Shown piece after piece: positions 41,731-53,613 of a stretch of DNA of 64,000 nt. The position numbers and the translations under genes were made by a program. The DNA is from Chitinophagales bacterium (lineage in GTDB: Bacteria; Bacteroidota; Bacteroidia; Chitinophagales; Chitinophagaceae), in assembly GCA_031375675.1 (NCBI GenBank), contig JANMIG010000014.1:15934-79933 (forward strand). Direction: 5' to 3'. The notes beneath the pieces are model-generated. The model was not told the DNA's origin, searched no databases, and worked only from the letters and a program-made list of their open reading frames with translations. Position 1 is the stretch's first letter, and every line of letters begins with the position of its first letter.

Positions 41731-42615
41731 ATGAAACATGTACTGTTAACAACAGTGACTGTGCTCTGCTTACATGCAGTTGCTTCAGCACAATTCGTAC
41801 AGGGCACCCAGGCCCTTTTCTCAAGAGATCAGGCAGGTGAATGCTGCTCCGGTGGCAATTATACATTGGCACTGGCAGAAAATACCGTGGGTACCGGAAG
41901 AAAAGCCGGCATCTCATTTCACAACGCAGGCTTTGACGAAGGCAAGCTGGAACTCTCCAGGGACGCAGGTTTCAGAAGTATCAAATTTTTTGACAACCAG
42001 GGGCTGGGGCTGGGCATACATGTTGTGGGCCAGGCATTGTTCTCCAGGGATAATGCCGGAGAGTGCTGCTCAGGTGTGGCCCAGTTTACTGTAGCACTGG
42101 CAGAAAATACTGCTGCAAGCGGCAGAAGGGCTTCCATTTCTTTTCACAACGGCGGGCAGGATGAAGGCCGTATAGAATTGTCGAATGATGGCGGATTCCG
42201 CAATCTGAAGTTTGTTGACAACCAGTCGCAAAACCTGGGCCTTAATGTAACAGGTAAAGTGCTTATTGGTAATACCACCATGCCGGCAGGATATAAACTA
42301 TATGTAGAGCAGGGCATCCTTACCGAAAAAGTAAAAGTAGCATTAAAAACAAGCGCTAACTGGGCCGACCATGTATTTGCACCCGGCTACAAACTGAAAC
42401 CATTATCTGAAGTGGAGACATTCATCCAACAATACAGTCATCTCCCCGGCATTCCTTCTGCTGAAGCGTTGGTAAAAGAAGGTGGCATTGACATGAACCA
42501 GATGTTTGCCAGGCAAATGGAAAAGATTGAAGAGCTCACATTGTATATGATTGAACTGAACAAAGAGAATGAACAACTGAAAAAAGAAGTGCAGGCACTG
42601 AAAAAGCGGCGCTGA
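41731..42615 (+). CDS. Secreted tail-fibre-like protein 1 (C-terminal chaperone/S74-like domain)
   Basis: Signal peptide, two 74-aa repeats (QALFSRD.AGECCSG...), then YKLYVEQGILTEKVKV...WADHVF...HLPGIPSA...KIEELTLY and a coiled coil. Confidence 0.75.
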   Translation: MKHVLLTTVTVLCLHAVASAQFVQGTQALFSRDQAGECCSGGNYTLALAENTVGTGRKAGISFHNAGFDEGKLELSRDAGFRSIKFFDNQGLGLGIHVVGQALFSRDNAGECCSGVAQFTVALAENTAASGRRASISFHNGGQDEGRIELSNDGGFRNLKFVDNQSQNLGLNVTGKVLIGNTTMPAGYKLYVEQGILTEKVKVALKTSANWADHVFAPGYKLKPLSEVETFIQQYSHLPGIPSAEALVKEGGIDMNQMFARQMEKIEELTLYMIELNKENEQLKKEVQALKKRR

Positions 42616-42688
42616 AATATAACTGCTGAAGCAGTAAAGCAGTCAGCGGCTAATCGATTGCATCAGAATCAATTAAAAAACTAAAATA

Positions 42689-43651
42689 ATGAAGAAATTT
42701 TTTATTCCGGCTTGCTTACTGGTATTGGGTACAGGTAGTAAGGCGCAGCTTTTTTCTAGCGGTAATAATGTAATCAGCAGTACCAATGTGGGTATTGGCA
42801 CGGCTGCACCCAATGCCAAATTGCAGGTGTTTGGTGGAGGCAGTGGTAGTGTAGACCTGAGAATAAACGGACGCATAGCCACAGGTGATGCAGGCGGATA
42901 CGGTGGTGTATGGCTGAATGGAGAAGGCAACGATTGCTTTGTAGGCAATAATGGCACCAATGTAGGGTTCTGGACAGGCAGCCAGGGTTGGGCTGCTTTC
43001 CAGATTAACAAAACAACGGGCAATACAGGTATCGGCACAGGTTCACCAGCGTCAAAGCTGGATGTTTTTGGTGGCGGTGGCGGCAATGTTGATATCCGCA
43101 CCAATGGCCGTATACTTACCGGTGATGCTTCCGGCAACGGCGGCATATGGCTGAATGGCAACAGCAACGACTGCTTTGTGGGCAATAACGGAACCAATGT
43201 TTCCTTCTGGACAAGCTCAGTTGGATGGTCGGCTTTGCAGATAGAAAAAACCACCGGCAAAGTAATGATTGGTAACGTTACCTCTCCCAATGGCTACAAG
43301 CTTTTTGTAGAACAGGGCATACTTACCGAAAAAGTGAAGGTAGCCGTTAAAACTTCTGCCAACTGGGCCGACTATGTATTTGACAAAAAATATGAGCTGC
43401 CTGCCCTTAAGCAGGTAGAGCAGTACATTCAGCAGCACCAGCACCTTCCGGGCATACCAGCGGCCGGCGAAGTGGTGAAAGAAGGGCTTGACCTGGGAGA
43501 CATGGATGCCAGGTTGCTGGCCAAAATAGAAGAACTCACCCTGTACATCATCGCCATAGATAAAGAAGCTGCACTGCAAAAACAACGCAACGATGCCATG
43601 CAGAAAGAAATAGCCGGGTTAAGGCTCCAATTAAAACAAATCAATCACTAA
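42689..43651 (+). CDS. Secreted tail-fibre-like protein 2
   Basis: Signal peptide, two 79-aa repeats starting N.GIGT..P..KL.V, and the same C-terminal domain (WADYVF). Confidence 0.75.
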   Translation: MKKFFIPACLLVLGTGSKAQLFSSGNNVISSTNVGIGTAAPNAKLQVFGGGSGSVDLRINGRIATGDAGGYGGVWLNGEGNDCFVGNNGTNVGFWTGSQGWAAFQINKTTGNTGIGTGSPASKLDVFGGGGGNVDIRTNGRILTGDASGNGGIWLNGNSNDCFVGNNGTNVSFWTSSVGWSALQIEKTTGKVMIGNVTSPNGYKLFVEQGILTEKVKVAVKTSANWADYVFDKKYELPALKQVEQYIQQHQHLPGIPAAGEVVKEGLDLGDMDARLLAKIEELTLYIIAIDKEAALQKQRNDAMQKEIAGLRLQLKQINH

Positions 43652-43705
43652 GCATCTCATCACCAGCATTTATGGCTGCATCCATAAATGCACAAAACAC
43701 ATACA

Positions 43706-44539
43706 ATGAAAAAAATCATTTTTACAAGCCTGGCCTGCCTGGGCATTTCAGCAGTACTAAGTGCACAAACCAACAATTTCCCCAATGGAATTTATGTAAA
43801 CAAGGGAAACAGTGCCGGTGGCTCGGCAATACTTGTGGGTTCTACCTATGCCAGTCATTTTCATTACTCCACAGAAGAAGATACCTATATCCGTGGCGGC
43901 TTAGGCACATCAAGGGTAATAATAGGCGATGTTGGATCATCCGTTATACTGGGTAATGCAGGAAGCCCCACCATTTCGCAGGGATTGCTGCAGGCACAAA
44001 ACGGGCTGGTGGGTGTAAAAGGAAATTCATCCGGGGGATCCGCCATTTTTGTTGGCTCCACCTATGCCTCTCACTTCAACTTTTCCACTACAGAAGACAC
44101 GTATATCAGGGGCGGAAAAGCCACGTCCAATTTAATCCTGAGCGATGTTGGTAATGCCGTTGTTGTAGGCAATGTGCCTTCGCTGCCGGCCGGGTATAAA
44201 TTATTTGTAGAGCGTGGCATACTAACCGAAAAAGTAAAAGTAGCGCTGAGAGGTACTGCCAACTGGAGTGACTATGTATTTGATAAAAAGTACAAACTGC
44301 AGCCGCTTGCACAGGTGGAAAAATTTATTCTGAAAAACAAGCATCTTCCCGGCATACCATCCGCACAGCAACTGGTTGATGAAGGCGGTGTGGATGTAAG
44401 CGCAATGCTGGCAAAGCAGATGGAAAAAATAGAAGAACTCACTTTGCACCTGATTGCCATGAATAAACAACTCACTGAATTGCAGCAGGAAAACAAAATG
44501 CAGCAGCAGGAGATACAAACTTTAAAAAAGAAAAAATAA
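43706..44539 (+). CDS. Secreted tail-fibre-like protein 3
   Basis: Start MKKII, two repeats at 72-aa spacing (KGNS.GGSAI.VGSTYASHF..ST.EDTYIRGG), and the same C-terminal domain (WSDYVF). Confidence 0.75.
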   Translation: MKKIIFTSLACLGISAVLSAQTNNFPNGIYVNKGNSAGGSAILVGSTYASHFHYSTEEDTYIRGGLGTSRVIIGDVGSSVILGNAGSPTISQGLLQAQNGLVGVKGNSSGGSAIFVGSTYASHFNFSTTEDTYIRGGKATSNLILSDVGNAVVVGNVPSLPAGYKLFVERGILTEKVKVALRGTANWSDYVFDKKYKLQPLAQVEKFILKNKHLPGIPSAQQLVDEGGVDVSAMLAKQMEKIEELTLHLIAMNKQLTELQQENKMQQQEIQTLKKKK

Positions 44540-44591
44540 TAAGCATGGGCTGCCATATGCTTATGCATTTAACTAGCTAAAAACATACAAC

Positions 44592-45557
44592 ATGAAAAAA
44601 ATAATTACCCCGCCGTTGCTGCTGCTGTGCATCCTCGGCGCAGGTTTAACCAATGCACAGCAATTGGTTTCTTCAATTGCTACAAATGAGGGGGGAAGTG
44701 TGTCATTACAAAACCCGTTAAAAACACATCCCAATGCCAATAACTGGATCATTTATAATATGACGGGGGCGTATGGCAACAGTTTGCAATTCTGGGCATA
44801 TACCAACACAACCAACCTGGGGCCAAAACTAACCATTACCGATGCCGGAAATATGGGAGTAGGCACCCAAACGCCTGTGGCAAAACTGGATGTGAATGGC
44901 AGCCTGAATGTGAATGGAGTGGCCAATGCAAGCAGCTATATTTCGTCAACTATTTCCAGCAGTGAAGGTGGCGGATTTGGGTTAATCAATCCGCTGAAGA
45001 CGGCACCGGATGCTGCCAGCCTGTGGCGGATCTATAATATGACCAGCGCATATGGCAGCAACAGCCTGCAATTCTGGGCATACAGCAATACCACTAACCT
45101 CGGCTCAAAACTCACCATTACTGATGCAGGCAATATGGGTATTGGCATTGCTGCCCCTGCGGCTAAGCTGGATGTGGCCGGAAATGTACGCATCGGTTCA
45201 GTAACAATGCCGGCCGGCTACAGGCTTTATGTAGAGCAGGGTATTCTTACCGAAAAAGTAAAAGTGGCCATTAAAACAAGTGCCAACTGGGCTGATCATG
45301 TATTTGCACCGGGCTATCAATTAAAGGCTTTGCATGAAGTGGAAGCATTTATAAAAGATAAGCAGCATCTACCGGGCATCCCCTCAGCAGAGCAACTGGT
45401 GCAGGATGGCGGTATTGACATGACTATGATGTTTGCAAAGCAGATGGAAAAAATTGAAGAGCTCACCCTGTATCTCATAGAAATGAAAAAAGAAATAAAG
45501 CAGTTGCAGCATGAAAACAGCCTGTTAAAGACAAATAATTTACAACCAAAAAAATAA
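44592..45557 (+). CDS. Secreted tail-fibre-like protein 4
   Basis: Signal peptide, two repeats at 92-aa spacing (EGG...NPLKT.P.A..W.IYNMT.AYG.SLQFWAY), and the same C-terminal domain. Confidence 0.75.
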   Translation: MKKIITPPLLLLCILGAGLTNAQQLVSSIATNEGGSVSLQNPLKTHPNANNWIIYNMTGAYGNSLQFWAYTNTTNLGPKLTITDAGNMGVGTQTPVAKLDVNGSLNVNGVANASSYISSTISSSEGGGFGLINPLKTAPDAASLWRIYNMTSAYGSNSLQFWAYSNTTNLGSKLTITDAGNMGIGIAAPAAKLDVAGNVRIGSVTMPAGYRLYVEQGILTEKVKVAIKTSANWADHVFAPGYQLKALHEVEAFIKDKQHLPGIPSAEQLVQDGGIDMTMMFAKQMEKIEELTLYLIEMKKEIKQLQHENSLLKTNNLQPKK

Positions 45558-45565
45558 TTACAGTT

Positions 45566-47620
45566 ATGAAAAAAATAATAACCATCATATGCACCGGCCT
45601 GCTTTTTAGCACAGCCGCCCACAGCCAGGAAGTGCAAACCTTCCGCTATGCTGAAACCAAAGGTATCCTGGCCAAGCCTTCTCCCGGCGAAATAAGCGCA
45701 GAGAAAAGAACTGGCGAAAAACTGTCAGAACACAAGCTGCCTGAATTTAAAGGGAAGGTGCCCGCAGGTATCACTGTATACAAAACTGCTTATGCTGAAA
45801 ATCTAAAACCAGTTGAAGCGGGTATTGTGCCGGATGCTCCTGCTTCCTGCCTCAATTACCAGGGATTAAATGACAGTGAAACAGGCGTAGGACTGACACC
45901 GCCTGATGTGAATGGCTCTGTAGGACCTGCCAATGTACTCGTATCCATCAACAATGGTATCAAAATACAAAACCTGGCCAATGGGGCCAACCAGTTCACA
46001 GGTTCGCTGGCCACTTTTTTCGCACCGCTCAGTCCTGTATTTCCGTTTGACCCCAAAACATTGTATGACCCCTATGAAAACAGGTGGATTGTAACCTGCC
46101 CCGATGCTACCAATGCATCACAGTCACGTTTACTGCTGGCAGTATCACAAACAGCCAACCCGAATGGTGCCTGGTTTTTTTATGCAATAGATGTGGATCC
46201 TGCCAACACCTCCTGGTTTGATTATCCAAGCATCGGCTTTAACCGCAACTGGATTGTGATTACTGGAAACATGTTTGGTGCCGGTGTATACAGTGCCGTA
46301 TTTGCCATTAATAAACTGGCAGCTTACGGCGGCACGGCCAATGTTACCAGGTTTGCACTTGCCAGCTCACTTGGCTTTACACTACAGCCAGCGCTTACTT
46401 ATAACAACACTGAAAATACAGAGTGGCTCTGCAACGACTGGAACGGTAATTCCGGCGGCAATGGTTTTATCCGCCTGTTTAATATTACCGGCACACCTGC
46501 AGCTCCTGTTTTTAATACACCCAACCTGCTTCCATCTGTAAATACAACATGGAGCTCTGCCGACCAGAACATCAGCACATTTGGCTGTGCCAGTGTGCGT
46601 GCCATCGATGCCAGGATGCGCTCATTGGTTCTTCAGGGTGGCAGCCTGTGGGCAGTTCATAAAATCGGTTTACCAACGGCAGCTCCTACCAGGGCTTCCA
46701 GCCAGTGGTGGGAAATAAACCCCGCCACAGGTGCTGTAAACCAGTTTGGCCGTATTGATGATGCCACCGGTGCAAATATGTACTTCAACCCCTCCCTTTC
46801 AGTGAATGCCAACAGGGATGTGCTCATCGGCTTCTCTCATTTTTCAAATACAGCTTTTCCAAGGGCAAGCTATACATACAGGGCCGCCACCGACCCGCTG
46901 AATACATTACAGCCGATACTTGACTATCAAACCAGCAGCAGGATGGAATGCACAGGCCGCTGGGGCGATTACAGCAGCACCATTACTGACCCCAATGGCG
47001 TTAACATGTGGACGCTGCAGCAGTATGTGCCTGCAGGAACGGGATCCGGTACCTGGTGGTCAATGGTATGCCCACCTGTCAGCTGCCCGGCCACACTTAC
47101 CATCAGTACGCCTTCAGCCACAGCCAATACCAAATTTGAAGTATCAGTGAACATCGTTGGTACGTCAACTGTAAATCCACCAAGCGGCTTTGTAAAGTTT
47201 GATGCAGGCCAGGAAGTGCTGATGAGCCCCGGCTTTGAAACCAGCATTGCCGCCGGCGCAGAATTTTCAGCTTACATTGATGGCTGCGGTGGTTTGCGTA
47301 TAGCCAATAACGAAATAACAAGGACGGAACCGGTAGAAATAACAACGACTACCAGGGAAGCATCCGTAATTGATGAAACAGCGGCAGCATTCAGTGTTTA
47401 TCCCAATCCTGCTGAAAATGTACTGAATATAAGCCTGCCTTCAAAAGCAGAAAGAATTGTAAGCGTGGAAGTGTTTGATGCGCAGGGAAGAAAAATGAAG
47501 CTGGGCTCCCGGTTAATCAGCCAGTCTGCAGCAGATATCAGCAGACTGCCAAAGGGCAGCTATTTCATTAAAGTACGCACCGCAAACGGCGAATATCAGT
47601 CAAAGTTCATAAAAGAATAA
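45566..47620 (+). CDS. T9SS type A cargo protein of unknown function
   Basis: Signal peptide; PPD..GSVGP, FDPK.LYD, WFDYPSIG and RWGDYSS motifs; a DAGQEVLMSPGF...GAEFSAYI.GC module; CTD FSVYPNPA...GSYFIKV...KFIKE. Confidence 0.85.
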   Translation: MKKIITIICTGLLFSTAAHSQEVQTFRYAETKGILAKPSPGEISAEKRTGEKLSEHKLPEFKGKVPAGITVYKTAYAENLKPVEAGIVPDAPASCLNYQGLNDSETGVGLTPPDVNGSVGPANVLVSINNGIKIQNLANGANQFTGSLATFFAPLSPVFPFDPKTLYDPYENRWIVTCPDATNASQSRLLLAVSQTANPNGAWFFYAIDVDPANTSWFDYPSIGFNRNWIVITGNMFGAGVYSAVFAINKLAAYGGTANVTRFALASSLGFTLQPALTYNNTENTEWLCNDWNGNSGGNGFIRLFNITGTPAAPVFNTPNLLPSVNTTWSSADQNISTFGCASVRAIDARMRSLVLQGGSLWAVHKIGLPTAAPTRASSQWWEINPATGAVNQFGRIDDATGANMYFNPSLSVNANRDVLIGFSHFSNTAFPRASYTYRAATDPLNTLQPILDYQTSSRMECTGRWGDYSSTITDPNGVNMWTLQQYVPAGTGSGTWWSMVCPPVSCPATLTISTPSATANTKFEVSVNIVGTSTVNPPSGFVKFDAGQEVLMSPGFETSIAAGAEFSAYIDGCGGLRIANNEITRTEPVEITTTTREASVIDETAAAFSVYPNPAENVLNISLPSKAERIVSVEVFDAQGRKMKLGSRLISQSAADISRLPKGSYFIKVRTANGEYQSKFIKE

Positions 47621-47693
47621 ATATTAGCAGCAGCTTGTATGTTTCCCGGGCAAAACATACAAGCTGCTTTATCCTCATTTTTAAAATAATTAC

Positions 47694-48692
47694 ATGAAAA
47701 AAATACAATTCTCCATCATCGCCGCAGTAATACTGCTTACAGGTAACTATACACAGGCACAGCAAACATTTACGAGGAATGATGCGGGCCTGCAGGGCAA
47801 TGCCGGTGCACAAAGCGGCTTTTTTGAAACCGTAGCACCGGTAAATTATCCTGCTGGTGCATCCAGCTGGTGGCACCTGCTGGATATAAGGCATACCAAT
47901 ACAGGAAATAATTATGCGATGCAGCTTTCAGGCAGTTTTTTCGACCAGGATATTTACTTCCGTAAAACCAACGGGACAGCCAATACAGCATGGAATAAAT
48001 TTGTGTACACCACACCACAGGGTAATGCAGGAATAGGAATAGCGGCAGATGCTGCAACCCGGCTGTTTGTGTACCAGGGCAACGGGCTTGCCTCAGCAGC
48101 AGGAAGCAAACAGCACATCTCCAAAATGGGAGGTGTGGCAGGTAATTACTGCGAATTAAGTACCCAGTTGTACAGGCATACAGCAGGCACTGACTGGACC
48201 ACCGCAGCTACCCGGCTCCAGGCAAGAACAGATGTGACCGACCAGGCATATATAGACTTCAACCCTGCCGGTGCTCCATACGGGCTGGCGCTTGGAATAA
48301 CAGGCAGCGGCTCAGCACTTACCGTAAACAGTTCTTCGCAGGTTGTTATTGGCAACACTACCACACCCGGTAGTTATAAATTATATGTGGAAACAGGCAT
48401 CCTTACTGAAAAAGTAAAAGTAGCTGTTAAAACAAGTGCCAACTGGGCTGACCATGTATTTGCACCGGGCTACAAGCTAAAATCTATTACTGAAGTAGAT
48501 GCATTTATAAAAGCCAACAAGCACCTGCCCGGCGTACCATCTGCCACCACCATGGTAAAGGAAGGACTGGATGTTGCTGCCATGGATGCTAAGCTGCTGG
48601 AGAAAGTGGAAGAACTCACACTGTATGTGATAGAACTCAACAAAAGGCTGCAACTGCTCGAAAAGGAAAACAAGGCATTGAGAAAAAAATAA
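47694..48692 (+). CDS. Secreted tail-fibre-like protein 5
   Basis: Signal peptide, a NYP...WWHLLDIRH.N..NNYAMQ.SGSFFDQ..YFRKT module, a second unrelated module and the same C-terminal domain. Confidence 0.75.
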   Translation: MKKIQFSIIAAVILLTGNYTQAQQTFTRNDAGLQGNAGAQSGFFETVAPVNYPAGASSWWHLLDIRHTNTGNNYAMQLSGSFFDQDIYFRKTNGTANTAWNKFVYTTPQGNAGIGIAADAATRLFVYQGNGLASAAGSKQHISKMGGVAGNYCELSTQLYRHTAGTDWTTAATRLQARTDVTDQAYIDFNPAGAPYGLALGITGSGSALTVNSSSQVVIGNTTTPGSYKLYVETGILTEKVKVAVKTSANWADHVFAPGYKLKSITEVDAFIKANKHLPGVPSATTMVKEGLDVAAMDAKLLEKVEELTLYVIELNKRLQLLEKENKALRKK

Positions 48693-49890: not shown

Positions 49891-50361
49891 AACAGTTTAA
49901 ATTATGTTTCCAATGCTATATTAGTGTATTGGCTGGCAAAAAAATCACAGTTGTCACAAAAATATTTTATCATAACCTGTTTTACACAGTGAACTATTGA
50001 ACAAAGTAATTGTAACCCGGTTGCATTACCAATGAATATTGTTCAGTGTGTTGCAATAATAACGGACATTAGACCAGGCATATAAGTTCACCGGCTTTAC
50101 AGTAATTGGTTGACTGTATTCATGAGTTTTTTTCGGGATACATTTTCCATCAATGCTGGCAGCTTTCATGCTGAGATTGTCTAAAAGCATATCCGGGTCA
50201 ATCTCATTAAAGGAACAATTTTCACCTTTTATCCGGGATGCCGGGATAAGCAGCAAGCATTTAAAGCAAATACGATGGGCAGGTCTATCCTGGCTAGTGT
50301 TGTATTTTTTTGGAAACATCAATTTTGTGAGTATTTTTATTGTATTAATCTGAATTGTATA

Positions 50362-53300
50362 ATGAAAACAGTATTGTTCAACCGGGCGTTTTCCCTGATT
50401 ATTTTGTTTATTGCTTTTTTCAGCACTGCTGAAGAGCTATCGGCTACTACCATTCCTTCGCCAGCCGAACCGGGTATTGATGCAGGTAAAAATAATGCTG
50501 CAATACCAGCGGTTACCGGGTCAGTACAAAAAAGTAATAAGGCTGCGGCCAGCTCATTTATGCCTGCTCCAGGAGATACCTTACTGGTAGGCAACGGCAA
50601 TACCTACACCTCCCTTACCAAAGCCGGCGGATTGTTTCAGGCATTGAACAACAGTTCGCTTATATTAAACAGAAATATAACTGTACTGATTACCTCTGAC
50701 CTAACCGAAGACGGAACCAATATGTTAACCAATACCAATCTCAATGGTTTCAGGCTTACGATTAAACCTTCGGCAGACACATTGCGGAATATCAGCAATA
50801 CGGCCAACTTGGGCAACAGTATGATTACTGTAACTGGTGCAAAAAAAATTGTATTTGATGGCAATTACAATGGCAGCGGCAGGTACCTGCGTTTTGTAAA
50901 TACACACACTGTGTCCAACCAGTGTAAACCGGCTTTTTATATACTGGGCAATGCAGACAGTGTTGTCCTCAGCAACATCATCGCTGAGTGCAATTACAAA
51001 ACTGACTTTAATAATTCTCAGGGACCAGGTGCCACCATTTTTATTAATACAGGCAATAATAAAAACATCATCATCCGTGAATCCGTTTTGAGAGATGCTG
51101 CTACAGGCACACCGGGTACACCAGATAATGCCATACTATCCATGAGTGCCGGCAATAAACTGATCATTACCGGTAATGATATTTACAATTTTAAATTCAA
51201 TGGTGTGAATTTAGAAAGTGCTGCCGATGGCGCCATCATCAGCAATAATCATTTTTACTACAATATGCCTTCGCCGGCCGGCACATCGCAAACAGCCATC
51301 AAAATCATCAATGGCAGCAAACACAGGGTGGAAAATAACTTTATTGGCGGCAGCAGCCGCAATTGTGGCGGTGCTGTTTGGCTCAACAACGGCAATCTTG
51401 TTGACCCCATCAATGGCAGCCTCAGCTTTGCAGCCATTGATATAAGTGTATCTGCGACTGATACATGCTTTATCAGGAACAATACGATACAGAATATCAG
51501 CATCAATGCCATACCGGGTGCATTTACCGGCATTGTTGGCTATGGTATGCTGATGGTTACGGGCAACCTTATCGGCCACCCCTCTGCTGCAAACAGCATC
51601 ATTAATTCGGGTAATAATTTCAGCACTTACACCAGGGCTATGAACCTGGGTGGCGGTGCGCCGATGGAAATAAGCAACAACGTCATTGCCAATATTACAT
51701 CTACAGGAACCGGCAGCCCCGTAAGCGTGGCACTGCATGGCATATTTATTGGCACCAATGGGTTTGCAAAAGTGCTGAACAATACTGTTTACAACCTGCA
51801 AAGCAGCTCTGGTAATGGCTACCTTTCACCCAATGCAGCTGTAACGGGCATTTACCTCTGGAGCAGCTTCAACGGCTATTTGTGTGAAGGAAACGACATA
51901 CACAGTTTAAAAGCAGTTAATACCGACATTAACATGGAGGTGATGGGTATAAGGATATTTGCCAGCACTACAGGCAATTTTAACCGCAACAGAATTTATG
52001 ACCTGCAATGTCTCTCTGCACGCAGTGGAAGCATTACCGGCATTTATGTCGAATCTCTTGGCAGTTACAGGTTTACCAATAACCAGTTATCAATTACGAA
52101 CGGAACCAACACCAATAAACTTACCATCAGGGGCATTAACAACAATGCGGGCAATAATTCCGGAAGCTATTATTACAATACGATTTATATCGGGGGAGCA
52201 ACGCCGGACACTTCTTACTCATACGGATTATCCGTTTATGGCGGTAACATTACAACAAAATGCTTCAACAATATTATTTACAATGAACGTACCAGCGGCA
52301 CAGGAGATCATTATGCGGTGAGCGCCTTACCGGGAAATTTAAGCGCCAACTGGAGTACCCGTACATCAAACTACAACTTGTTTGTTACCAGGGACACAGC
52401 CCGGGTGAATGAGTGGGGACAATGCTGTACCGGGCTTCCCCAATCAATGCGTCAGTGGAAGGCGGCAACAGGGGGTGATACAAGCAGCTATGCTGCACTC
52501 AATACAAAAATACCTGCTGCTGCACTATTTGTAAATGCTGCTGCCGGCAACCTGAATATCAACAGCAATGATTCCATCTGCTGGTTCGTAAATGGCAAAG
52601 GCATGCCGGCAACAGGCATCAGTGCCGATTATGACAATGCAGCCAATGTAAGATCAGTAATACCGGCAACAGGGCCAACTGATATAGGCTCTGATGAATT
52701 TACAACAAGTACCGGCACTTTTGCGCTGGACCGCTCCGGCAATCACCAGCCGGGTGGTGCAGATACCCTGAGCTTTAACGGACGCATCATGGCCATCATT
52801 AAATGGGGTGCCGGAGGAACGCTGCCGGTAATGGGCAATTCAAAATGGTTTAGTGGAGTGTGGCCAAATGACACTACCAACAATGGTACTGTAACCAATG
52901 CCCGGTTTATGAGTGGTTATCTGGATATACCTGTTAGTGGCGGAAGCAATTACACCTATTCTCTTACCATGTATTATGATTCGGCAATGGCAGGCAAAGT
53001 AACAAATATTGCTTCCATGTTGCTGCACAAGCGGCAGGCCAATACACCGGGAAGCTGGGTAAACTTTCCTTCGTCAGTAATAAATACAACGGCAAAAACA
53101 ATTACAGTAAACAATATCAATTCATTTTCTGAGTTTACCGCAGCCGATGCCAATGCGTCTCTATCAACTGGTAAACTGCCGTTTTGCCCGGGCGCAAGCA
53201 CTATCCTCGTATCGCCCTTATCAGGTACCGTGTATCAATGGCAGCTTGATGCAGGTTTGGGATATGCAAATATTACCGACAATAGCAACTTTACAGGTTC

Positions 53301-53613
53301 AAATACGGCAAGCCTGCAAGTAAGCAATATCCCTTCGGCTTGGTATGGCTACAAACTGCGCTGTGTGGTGAATAGTGCCAGCACCGCTCCTACCGTTATC
53401 CAGATTGCCAACAACTGGACAGGAACTGCTGACAATGCCTGGGAAAATCCGGCCAACTGGTCTTGCGGAACTGTTCCTGACACTTTCACTGATGTTGTTA
53501 TCAGCAGCGGAACGATAGTATTGAATTCAAACGCTGTTATCAGGACTTTAAAGCTTGGCCCGGGAGTAAACTTTACAATACAACCGGGCTTTCAGCTGAC
53601 AATAACTAATTAA
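50362..53613 (+). CDS. Large secreted Asn/Gly-rich right-handed beta-helix protein (adhesin or pectin-lyase-like fold)
   Basis: Signal peptide, repeated I.NN.I / I.GN.I patterns, a YQWQ Ig-like module and a C-terminal WTG...WENPANW module. Start moved to MKTV. Confidence 0.8.
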   Translation: MKTVLFNRAFSLIILFIAFFSTAEELSATTIPSPAEPGIDAGKNNAAIPAVTGSVQKSNKAAASSFMPAPGDTLLVGNGNTYTSLTKAGGLFQALNNSSLILNRNITVLITSDLTEDGTNMLTNTNLNGFRLTIKPSADTLRNISNTANLGNSMITVTGAKKIVFDGNYNGSGRYLRFVNTHTVSNQCKPAFYILGNADSVVLSNIIAECNYKTDFNNSQGPGATIFINTGNNKNIIIRESVLRDAATGTPGTPDNAILSMSAGNKLIITGNDIYNFKFNGVNLESAADGAIISNNHFYYNMPSPAGTSQTAIKIINGSKHRVENNFIGGSSRNCGGAVWLNNGNLVDPINGSLSFAAIDISVSATDTCFIRNNTIQNISINAIPGAFTGIVGYGMLMVTGNLIGHPSAANSIINSGNNFSTYTRAMNLGGGAPMEISNNVIANITSTGTGSPVSVALHGIFIGTNGFAKVLNNTVYNLQSSSGNGYLSPNAAVTGIYLWSSFNGYLCEGNDIHSLKAVNTDINMEVMGIRIFASTTGNFNRNRIYDLQCLSARSGSITGIYVESLGSYRFTNNQLSITNGTNTNKLTIRGINNNAGNNSGSYYYNTIYIGGATPDTSYSYGLSVYGGNITTKCFNNIIYNERTSGTGDHYAVSALPGNLSANWSTRTSNYNLFVTRDTARVNEWGQCCTGLPQSMRQWKAATGGDTSSYAALNTKIPAAALFVNAAAGNLNINSNDSICWFVNGKGMPATGISADYDNAANVRSVIPATGPTDIGSDEFTTSTGTFALDRSGNHQPGGADTLSFNGRIMAIIKWGAGGTLPVMGNSKWFSGVWPNDTTNNGTVTNARFMSGYLDIPVSGGSNYTYSLTMYYDSAMAGKVTNIASMLLHKRQANTPGSWVNFPSSVINTTAKTITVNNINSFSEFTAADANASLSTGKLPFCPGASTILVSPLSGTVYQWQLDAGLGYANITDNSNFTGSNTASLQVSNIPSAWYGYKLRCVVNSASTAPTVIQIANNWTGTADNAWENPANWSCGTVPDTFTDVVISSGTIVLNSNAVIRTLKLGPGVNFTIQPGFQLTITN

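Follow-up and report, generated by a model that had tools for sequence, protein, structure and literature searches.

Organization of the locus

The sequence discussed here is a window of 64,000 nt (that is, the whole stretch of DNA that was analyzed) from contig JANMIG010000014.1 of assembly GCA_031375675.1. It belongs to a Chitinophagales bacterium whose 6.1-Mb metagenome-assembled genome (G000 in our survey) originates from freshwater sediment. The window contains an array of six genes, all on the forward strand: five encode secreted, fiber-like proteins that end in the same C-terminal module, and the sixth, located between the fourth and the fifth, encodes a type IX secretion system (T9SS) cargo. 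These co-directional genes had been noticed in a first-pass annotation made from the sequence alone, and all their positions are confirmed. The array is best read as a set of exported fibers resembling the mosaic adhesive trimers (MATs) of Bdellovibrio. Their constant domain appears not to have been described before, and neither does its association with a partner, which is very strong in statistical terms. This partner is the so-called coathanger domain, which the cargo carries just before its T9SS C-terminal domain (CTD).

Fiber gene 1 (41731-42615; 294 aa) encodes a Cys-rich N-terminal unit that is duplicated two-fold, followed by the constant module at ~42259-42612. In fiber gene 2 (42689-43651; 320 aa), the duplicated unit has the form GIGT..P..KL.V/NGRI.TGDA and the module occupies ~43268-43648. 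Fiber gene 3 begins at 43706, or alternatively at 43688, and ends at 44539; its 277-aa product has a duplicated YASHFHY..EDTYIRGG unit and the module at ~44168-44536. The product of fiber gene 4 (44592-45557; 321 aa) contains a duplicated beta-rich unit that ends in a collar motif, with the module at ~45192-45554. The cargo or effector gene comes next (45566-47620; 684 aa) and encodes an unannotated domain of ~500 aa, a coathanger domain and a type-A T9SS CTD. Finally, fiber gene 5 (47694-48692; 332 aa) has an N-terminal part that is not duplicated, carries the module at ~48348-48689 and has no downstream partner at this locus.

The array genes are separated by gaps of 52-73 nt, and 8 nt lie between the stop codon of gene 4 and the start of the cargo gene, a spacing that might allow translational coupling. 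Between the cargo gene and gene 5 is a perfect palindrome with a 17-bp stem (47629-47668), at a distance of 9 nt from the stop codon of the former and of 26 nt from the latter. This hairpin is probably a terminator or an attenuator that divides genes 1-4 and the cargo gene from gene 5. A scan for sigma-70 promoters gave matches at chance level only, and this consensus is not meaningful for Bacteroidota. The flanking genes are of the housekeeping kind (NuoL/M/N, a MacB/FtsX permease, RidA, an extracytoplasmic function sigma factor and the thymidylate synthase ThyA); none of those around the array belongs to a phage or to an extracellular contractile injection system, as the first-pass annotation had stated for capsid, terminase, baseplate, sheath and integrase genes.

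The constant C-terminal module

The constant module spans ~115 aa. In the alignment of the five fibers, its columns are 69% identical on average, and 46 of them are invariant. The motif by which the first-pass annotation had defined a common C-terminal domain is reproduced. Across the family, 11 positions are invariant and a further 22 near-invariant among 107 sequences. In an AlphaFold2 model of the module (predicted local distance difference test score, pLDDT, of 89.5), an extended stretch at the N terminus is followed by two short helices and by a terminal helix of 39 residues, the latter being consistent with the coiled coil that had been proposed. The module can thus be described as a strand segment that leads into a small helical domain, which has the invariant W.D.VF...Y.L...HLP..PS...G.D motif, and then into a long coiled coil.

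Neither Pfam, NCBIfam nor PHROGs recognizes the module. A profile search of PDB sequences gave nothing (best E, 0.25), a Foldseek comparison of the model with the PDB gave no match better than E 2.8, and in BFVD only one borderline environmental 'Megaviridae' protein was found, which is probably a misbinned homolog. When 1.84 billion cluster representatives (50% identity) were searched with a profile of the module, 36,131 proteins were recovered at E<=1e-3 and 32,879 at E<=1e-10, with lengths from ~120 to 1,975 aa. Named sources include Pedobacter, Flavobacterium, Chryseobacterium, Paludibacter and Chitinophagaceae, and nearly all the proteins are labeled 'hypothetical'. The module lies at the extreme C terminus in ~97% of 246 sampled proteins. 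It defines a large, unannotated and essentially cellular family. The phylum was sampled evenly with 301 genomes, including that of the window; the module was found in 49 genomes and in 36 of 143 genera, at 1-14 copies per genome; tandem arrays hold 48 of the 149 copies, and the genome of the window has 12.

Eleven family proteins carry two or three tandem modules per chain, exactly three in seven of them. On inspection, the three-module chains P0122 and P0123 proved to be true single polypeptides, not read-through fusions. Three modules in one chain may form a single-chain pseudo-trimer, which argues for a three-fold assembly of the module. The triple-module proteins, all metagenomic (P0121-P0126 and P0128), have a non-fiber N-terminal domain, which is lectin-like in P0122 and similar to leucine-rich repeats in P0123.

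Signal peptides, variable N-terminal regions and fiber fold

Sec signal peptides are present on all five fibers and on the cargo. The earlier description had these peptides ending in AQ; instead, the predicted cut falls between the two residues (A|Q in the fibers, S|Q in the cargo), so that Gln is residue +1 of the mature protein, as in the Q-rule of Bacteroidetes (PMC5837995, PMC10653852). A signal-peptide-like N terminus is also found in 203 of 232 sampled homologs, and 190 of these 203 have [ASGT]Q at the expected place.

The N-terminal halves had been considered mutually unrelated, which does not hold for genes 2, 4 and 5. These resemble each other (E of 1e-9 for genes 2 and 4, 4e-4 for genes 4 and 5, and 0.002 for genes 2 and 5) through a common collar motif, GN.GIGT..P..KL.V. 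The collar-repeat region is also what matches genes 2 and 4 to the PHROG tail fiber family 18345 (E of 7.8e-5 and 1.9e-12, respectively). Genes 1-4 each have an internal two-fold duplication (64-73% identity; z, 34-50), absent from gene 5, and the duplicated unit, of ~55-80 aa, is a different one in each gene (41809-45180). Such recent duplications suggest that repeat number evolves fast in the shaft or head of the fiber. The YASHFHY..EDTYIRGG unit of gene 3 is also present elsewhere in the same genome, both in another module protein (C74) and in a Peptidase_S74 (S74) protein (C65).

When a full-length model of the gene 4 product (pLDDT, 83.3) was compared by Foldseek with known structures, the best matches were the Bdellovibrio bacteriovorus proteins Bd2133, Bd1334, Bd3182 and Bd2439 (E of 8e-9 to 1e-2; 20-31% identity). 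The MAT structures 8OND, 8OML and 8ONC, which are of the beta-helix/prism type, gave E-values of 8e-9 to 1e-6 at a probability of 1.00, followed by the tail fibers T4 gp34 and T5 pb1 with marginal E-values. Together with the signal peptides and the PHROG matches of genes 2 and 4, the match of the gene 4 model to MATs (E 8e-9) bears out the earlier view that these are exported proteins of fiber fold. MATs form a superfamily of trimeric fibers that are chromosomally encoded, exported by Sec and located at the surface, where they bind prey glycans (PMC10769870). Their C termini are of the S74 type in 13 proteins and carry other caps ('NS74') in 8 (PMC10769870; Caulton et al. 2024; PDB 8OND, 8OML, 8ONC, 8ONF).

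The best reading is that the five proteins are exported fibers of the same general kind as MATs, presumably trimeric like them. Both are chromosomal, multi-paralog families with signal peptides and a mosaic of swappable modules, and both are split into S74 and non-S74 members (13+8 in Bdellovibrio, 13+12 in this genome). Nevertheless, their polarity is reversed: MATs have a constant N-terminal anchor of ~130 aa and variable C-terminal tips, whereas here the N terminus varies and the C terminus is constant. Furthermore, the constant module has no counterpart in solved MAT structures, the organisms belong to different phyla, and neither a coathanger partner nor a T9SS link has been described for MATs.

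The cargo protein and its coathanger domain

The type-A CTD of the cargo covers residues 611-684 (~47396-47617) and is recognized by PF18962 (E 6.6e-14) and TIGR04183 (E 1.6e-15; 56.8 bits). Just before it, at residues 527-574 (~47144-47287), lies a 3-coathanger stack (GCX_COOH, NF045639) that scores 39.3 bits against a cut-off of 26; the counterparts of the cargo likewise match this curated model above its cut-off. None of the five fibers matches PF18962, TIGR04183 or TIGR04131, nor do they have a coathanger, so the earlier assignment of a T9SS CTD to the sixth gene only is upheld. The genome has GldM and 105 CTD matches.

The remainder of the cargo, residues 20-520 (window 45566-47100), includes an RWGDY motif and has no Pfam match. 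It represents a widespread unannotated secreted domain, with hundreds of homologs in Acidobacteriota, Latescibacteria, Armatimonadetes, Zixibacteria, Chlorobi and Bacteroidota, where it is joined to PKD, P-domain, Fn3, dockerin, MYXO-CTERM or T9SS tails. Downstream of the array (50275-53613), the window also encodes a 1,112-aa protein with a signal peptide and no Pfam match; its C terminus, LKLGPGVNFTIQPGFQLTITN, resembles the PGF core of the coathanger motif, and neither of the two coathanger models used here picked up this protein.

Linkage between module and coathanger genes

The association of the two domains shows in a rough gene map of the genome of the window (5,192 open reading frames). 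The immediate downstream gene on the same strand encodes a T9SS CTD at 4 of 8 independent module loci, and the second downstream gene does so at two more; given a background rate of 1.5% for CTD neighbors, P is 3e-6 for the four of eight. These downstream cargos contain Peptidase_S8, BNR, Reprolysin (M12B) or an unannotated domain, and the coathanger is common to all. A hidden Markov model (HMM) of the coathanger, seeded from six cargos of this genome, detects exactly seven such proteins in it, including one that was not a seed, and all seven are encoded one or two genes downstream of a module gene. The same positions are held by the six proteins that match NF045639, all of them among the seven found by the HMM. 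NF045639 misses one of the seven, and partners elsewhere may escape the models.

Of the 42 NF045639 matches in the other 300 genomes, 31 have a module gene upstream, on the same strand and at most 10 kb away, and most of these pairs are directly adjacent. At the level of genomes, the coathanger was detected in 30, and the module occurs in 26 of them (odds ratio, 70; p, 5e-20). As a sign of dependence on T9SS, co-occurrence with GldM has no power: GldM is present in every genome of the same class, and its model misses the other classes, which hold 47-97 CTD proteins each.

The array is kept in two related contigs, where the gene of a 677-686-aa Por_Secre_tail protein starts 7-10 nt past the gene 4 ortholog. 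Both contigs hold a second unit of fibers followed by a cargo with coathanger and CTD, namely a Reprolysin protein in one (L011, 13227-16920) and a BNR-like protein in the other (L012, 4453-8740). In the window, gene 5 is trailed by convergent genes instead, which suggests that a second cargo was either lost or not gained in the first place. More generally, a cassette of one to four fibers followed by a coathanger protein recurs in L011, L012 and L038-L044. In distant lineages, for instance, three fibers precede a 2,923-aa DUF6443/Ntox23 toxin with a coathanger, two fibers precede RHS proteins of 2,028 and 2,160 aa, and single fibers precede either a Peptidase_M23 protein with a coathanger or small coathanger+CTD proteins. 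Thus, the link to a T9SS gene that had been suspected is real and conserved in relatives; nevertheless, the partner is the coathanger and not the domain with the RWGDY motif, and the pairing extends to RHS toxins.

At module loci where no coathanger was detected, the downstream gene often still codes for a toxin of the RHS or 'Cytotoxic' kind, or for a CTD cargo. In one case it is PorP/SprF, which was considered as a general partner and discarded, as it did not recur at any other locus. In another, it is a secretin of the GspD type, which follows one module gene of L030 (genome G096); two other module genes of L030 precede a 2,099-aa RHS/DUF6443 protein that ends in a colicin-type 'Cytotoxic' nuclease domain (L030:3090-5093 and L030:11627-17923). 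Among the 246 sampled module proteins, none has a CTD in cis, compared with 4 of the 13 S74 fibers of the genome of the window, and none is fused to a coathanger or to S74 either. Literature searches on the coathanger, on T9SS with tail fibers and on T9SS with Rhs found no paper that mentions the coathanger domain and no description of the pairing. The module, the role of the coathanger and their association thus appear to be undescribed.

A possible docking mechanism

These observations can be brought together if the constant tail of MAT-like trimeric fibers docks to the coathanger of a co-encoded effector. The fibers would be exported by Sec, and trimerization would be the task of the module with its coiled coil: in fibers that are not of the S74 type, this module would be the trimerizing cap found where others have the S74 chaperone. 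It would then bind, in a stoichiometry that is likewise conjectural, to the 3-coathanger stack of the secreted protein encoded immediately downstream. Since the fibers have no CTD of their own and the coathanger precedes that of the cargo, their signal for export or surface anchoring would be obtained in trans: in the window, the type-A CTD of the 684-aa cargo would give the whole complex passage through T9SS, anchoring to anionic lipopolysaccharide, or both. The variable, mostly duplicated, beta-rich heads would bind targets, and four alternative fibers plus a separately transcribed fifth may provide one effector with several targeting specificities, which would suit the operon-like arrangement of the genes. 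We judge this mechanism about equally likely to be right or wrong as a whole.

In a broader form, the module and the coathanger would be a Bacteroidota-wide two-part docking system that places interchangeable, trimeric targeting fibers on effectors, the CTD carrying the fiber through or onto T9SS in trans, for interbacterial antagonism or predation. The effectors proposed for such a system are T9SS-tailed proteases, peptidoglycan hydrolases, sialidase-like enzymes and RHS polymorphic toxins. Being proteases, a peptidase of the lysostaphin family, sialidase-like propellers and RHS nucleases, the partners point to antagonism, predation or the degradation of polymers on target surfaces. This generalization is tentative, and we consider it somewhat less probable than not.

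There are some parallels with T9SS cargos that have co-encoded partners, such as proteins with a type-B CTD next to PorP/SprF, or the TANFOR polymorphic toxins, which have been hypothesized to exit through T9SS beside CTD-bearing neighbors (PMC7073777). As in these cases, a protein without its own type-A CTD adjoins a T9SS-related gene, polymorphic toxins are involved and export in trans is hypothesized. Unlike them, the pair described here consists of a fiber module and a coathanger, PorP/SprF is adjacent only once and there is no TANFOR domain.

Several observations speak against the docking mechanism. Many module genes are without a detectable coathanger (13 copies in genome G135, 8 in G259 and 8 in G096), as are gene 5 and locus C99 of the genome of the window. 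Therefore, the module cannot depend strictly on the coathanger, and it works either without it or with partners that the models miss. Furthermore, the RHS-type coathanger partners lack a CTD, so export through T9SS by means of the partner is not universal. No precedent for T9SS co-export of non-covalent complexes was found in the literature, and co-duplication or co-regulation of surface-protein genes could produce adjacency without any contact between the products.

Alternative explanations

The alternative that survives best, which we still regard as unlikely, is that the fibers are independent surface adhesins. In this case, the module would be only a folding or trimerization cap, either a degenerate, non-cleaving relative of S74 or an analogue of the NS74 caps; export would follow some other route, and adjacency would reflect co-regulation or co-inheritance of a surface or antagonism island. 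The first-pass annotation had proposed an S74-like chaperone, an identity that was rejected on three grounds. Firstly, PF13884 gave no match to the five fibers at E<=1, and the 13 genuine S74 proteins of the genome (31-69 bits) include none of the module proteins. Secondly, HHalign puts the W-[ASP]-D-[HY]-V-F motif of the module on the S-D-x-x-x-K motif of S74, and where S74 has its catalytic Ser the module mostly has Ala or Pro, with Val or Phe in place of the Lys; hence, neither catalytic residue is present. Finally, and with less weight on its own because the model is a monomer of a probable trimer, the Foldseek search with the module returned no S74 structure from the PDB (best E, 2.8) and an S74 protein from BFVD only at E 8.1.

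On the other hand, some traits are shared with the S74 intramolecular chaperone known from endosialidase and T5 pb1. The module is likewise C-terminal, lies behind a fiber shaft and ends in a coiled-coil helix. Profile similarity is weak: HHalign gives a probability of 85.6% for the last 47 columns and of 77% for 110, and the part that scores best is the G.D-helix with the coiled-coil tail, whose composition may raise the value. Both kinds of fiber in this genome also follow a common plan: a signal peptide comes first, then GN.GIGT..P..KL.V collar repeats and variable modules, and the last part is a C-terminal domain with a coiled coil at its end. Having the same position behind the same N-terminal modules, the module is a positional alternative to S74. 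Unlike S74, it is essentially absent from phages and is probably not cleaved off. These comparisons are compatible with a distant, non-catalytic kinship but do not demonstrate one. The four S74 fibers with a type-A CTD, which are encoded on other contigs of the genome (C98:41176-42681, C64:261-2225, C89:13894-15687 and C74:8594-10555), have it after S74 and its coiled coil. The usual self-cleavage of S74 would cut this export signal from the fiber, which raises a question about the timing of cleavage and T9SS transit.

Independent adhesins would fit this shared position and profile similarity, the replacement of S74 by unrelated caps in the MAT family (PMC10769870) and the many module genes that lack a coathanger neighbor. 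By contrast, they would not account for the near-exclusive adjacency of coathanger genes to module genes (6/6 in this genome and 31/42 elsewhere), for intergenic gaps of 7-10 nt, or for the 11 invariant and 22 near-invariant positions, a conservation beyond what a folding cap needs. Besides, this explanation gives the fibers no export route.

It is rather improbable that the module proteins are not displayed at all and remain periplasmic, or confined to the inner side of the outer membrane, where they would help to assemble, chaperone or tether the effector, much like the assembly proteins of tail fibers or secretion adaptors. Such a role would agree with the absence of an outer-membrane export signal from the fibers, with their tight upstream position and possible translational coupling, and with partners that are very different and have only the coathanger in common; the single loci next to PorP/SprF and to a secretin would also fit. 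Nevertheless, the N-terminal parts are variable, duplicated and fiber-like, as binding tips should be, unlike chaperones; one to four different fibers per effector would be odd for a dedicated chaperone, and the structural relatives are surface fibers.

As to phages, a tblastn search with the module gave no match in 50,697 phage genomes, and a pattern-limited scan of 2.9 million IMG/VR contigs found it at only 4 loci, where the proteins also have Sec signal peptides. At one of these (L014:1741-9736, UViG_2911172825_000003), a 590-aa module protein with a signal peptide is encoded right after the genes of the small terminase, the large terminase and a tape-measure protein of 1,206 aa, and neither capsid nor portal lies in between. 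This is an odd phage-like element. PHROG matches that come from the collar repeats, together with the near absence of the module from phages, indicate that the shaft is common to phages and fibers and that the module is essentially cellular; a domestication of phage fibers, as had been suggested, is not shown. A prophage or tailocin remnant, with true phage tail fibers and a phage chaperone module, is thus largely refuted and very improbable: the PHROG matches of genes 2 and 4 and the terminase-linked protein speak for it, and against it stand the empty phage search, housekeeping flanks, arrays of relatives that also lack phage genes, signal peptides even on the 'viral' copies and 36,131 mostly cellular clusters.

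Implications

The module is present in more than 36,000 protein clusters and has remained unannotated. Its pairing with the equally unstudied coathanger offers a testable function for both domains. A constant docking tail combined with swappable binding heads could also serve for the engineering of surface display. If the pairing is physical, docking to a co-encoded effector would explain how fibers without a CTD reach the surface of Bacteroidota, and a T9SS cargo would be able to bring partners along in trans. It would also tie T9SS and RHS toxins to receptor-targeted antagonism, and the idea of predatory fibers of the MAT type would extend past Bdellovibrio.

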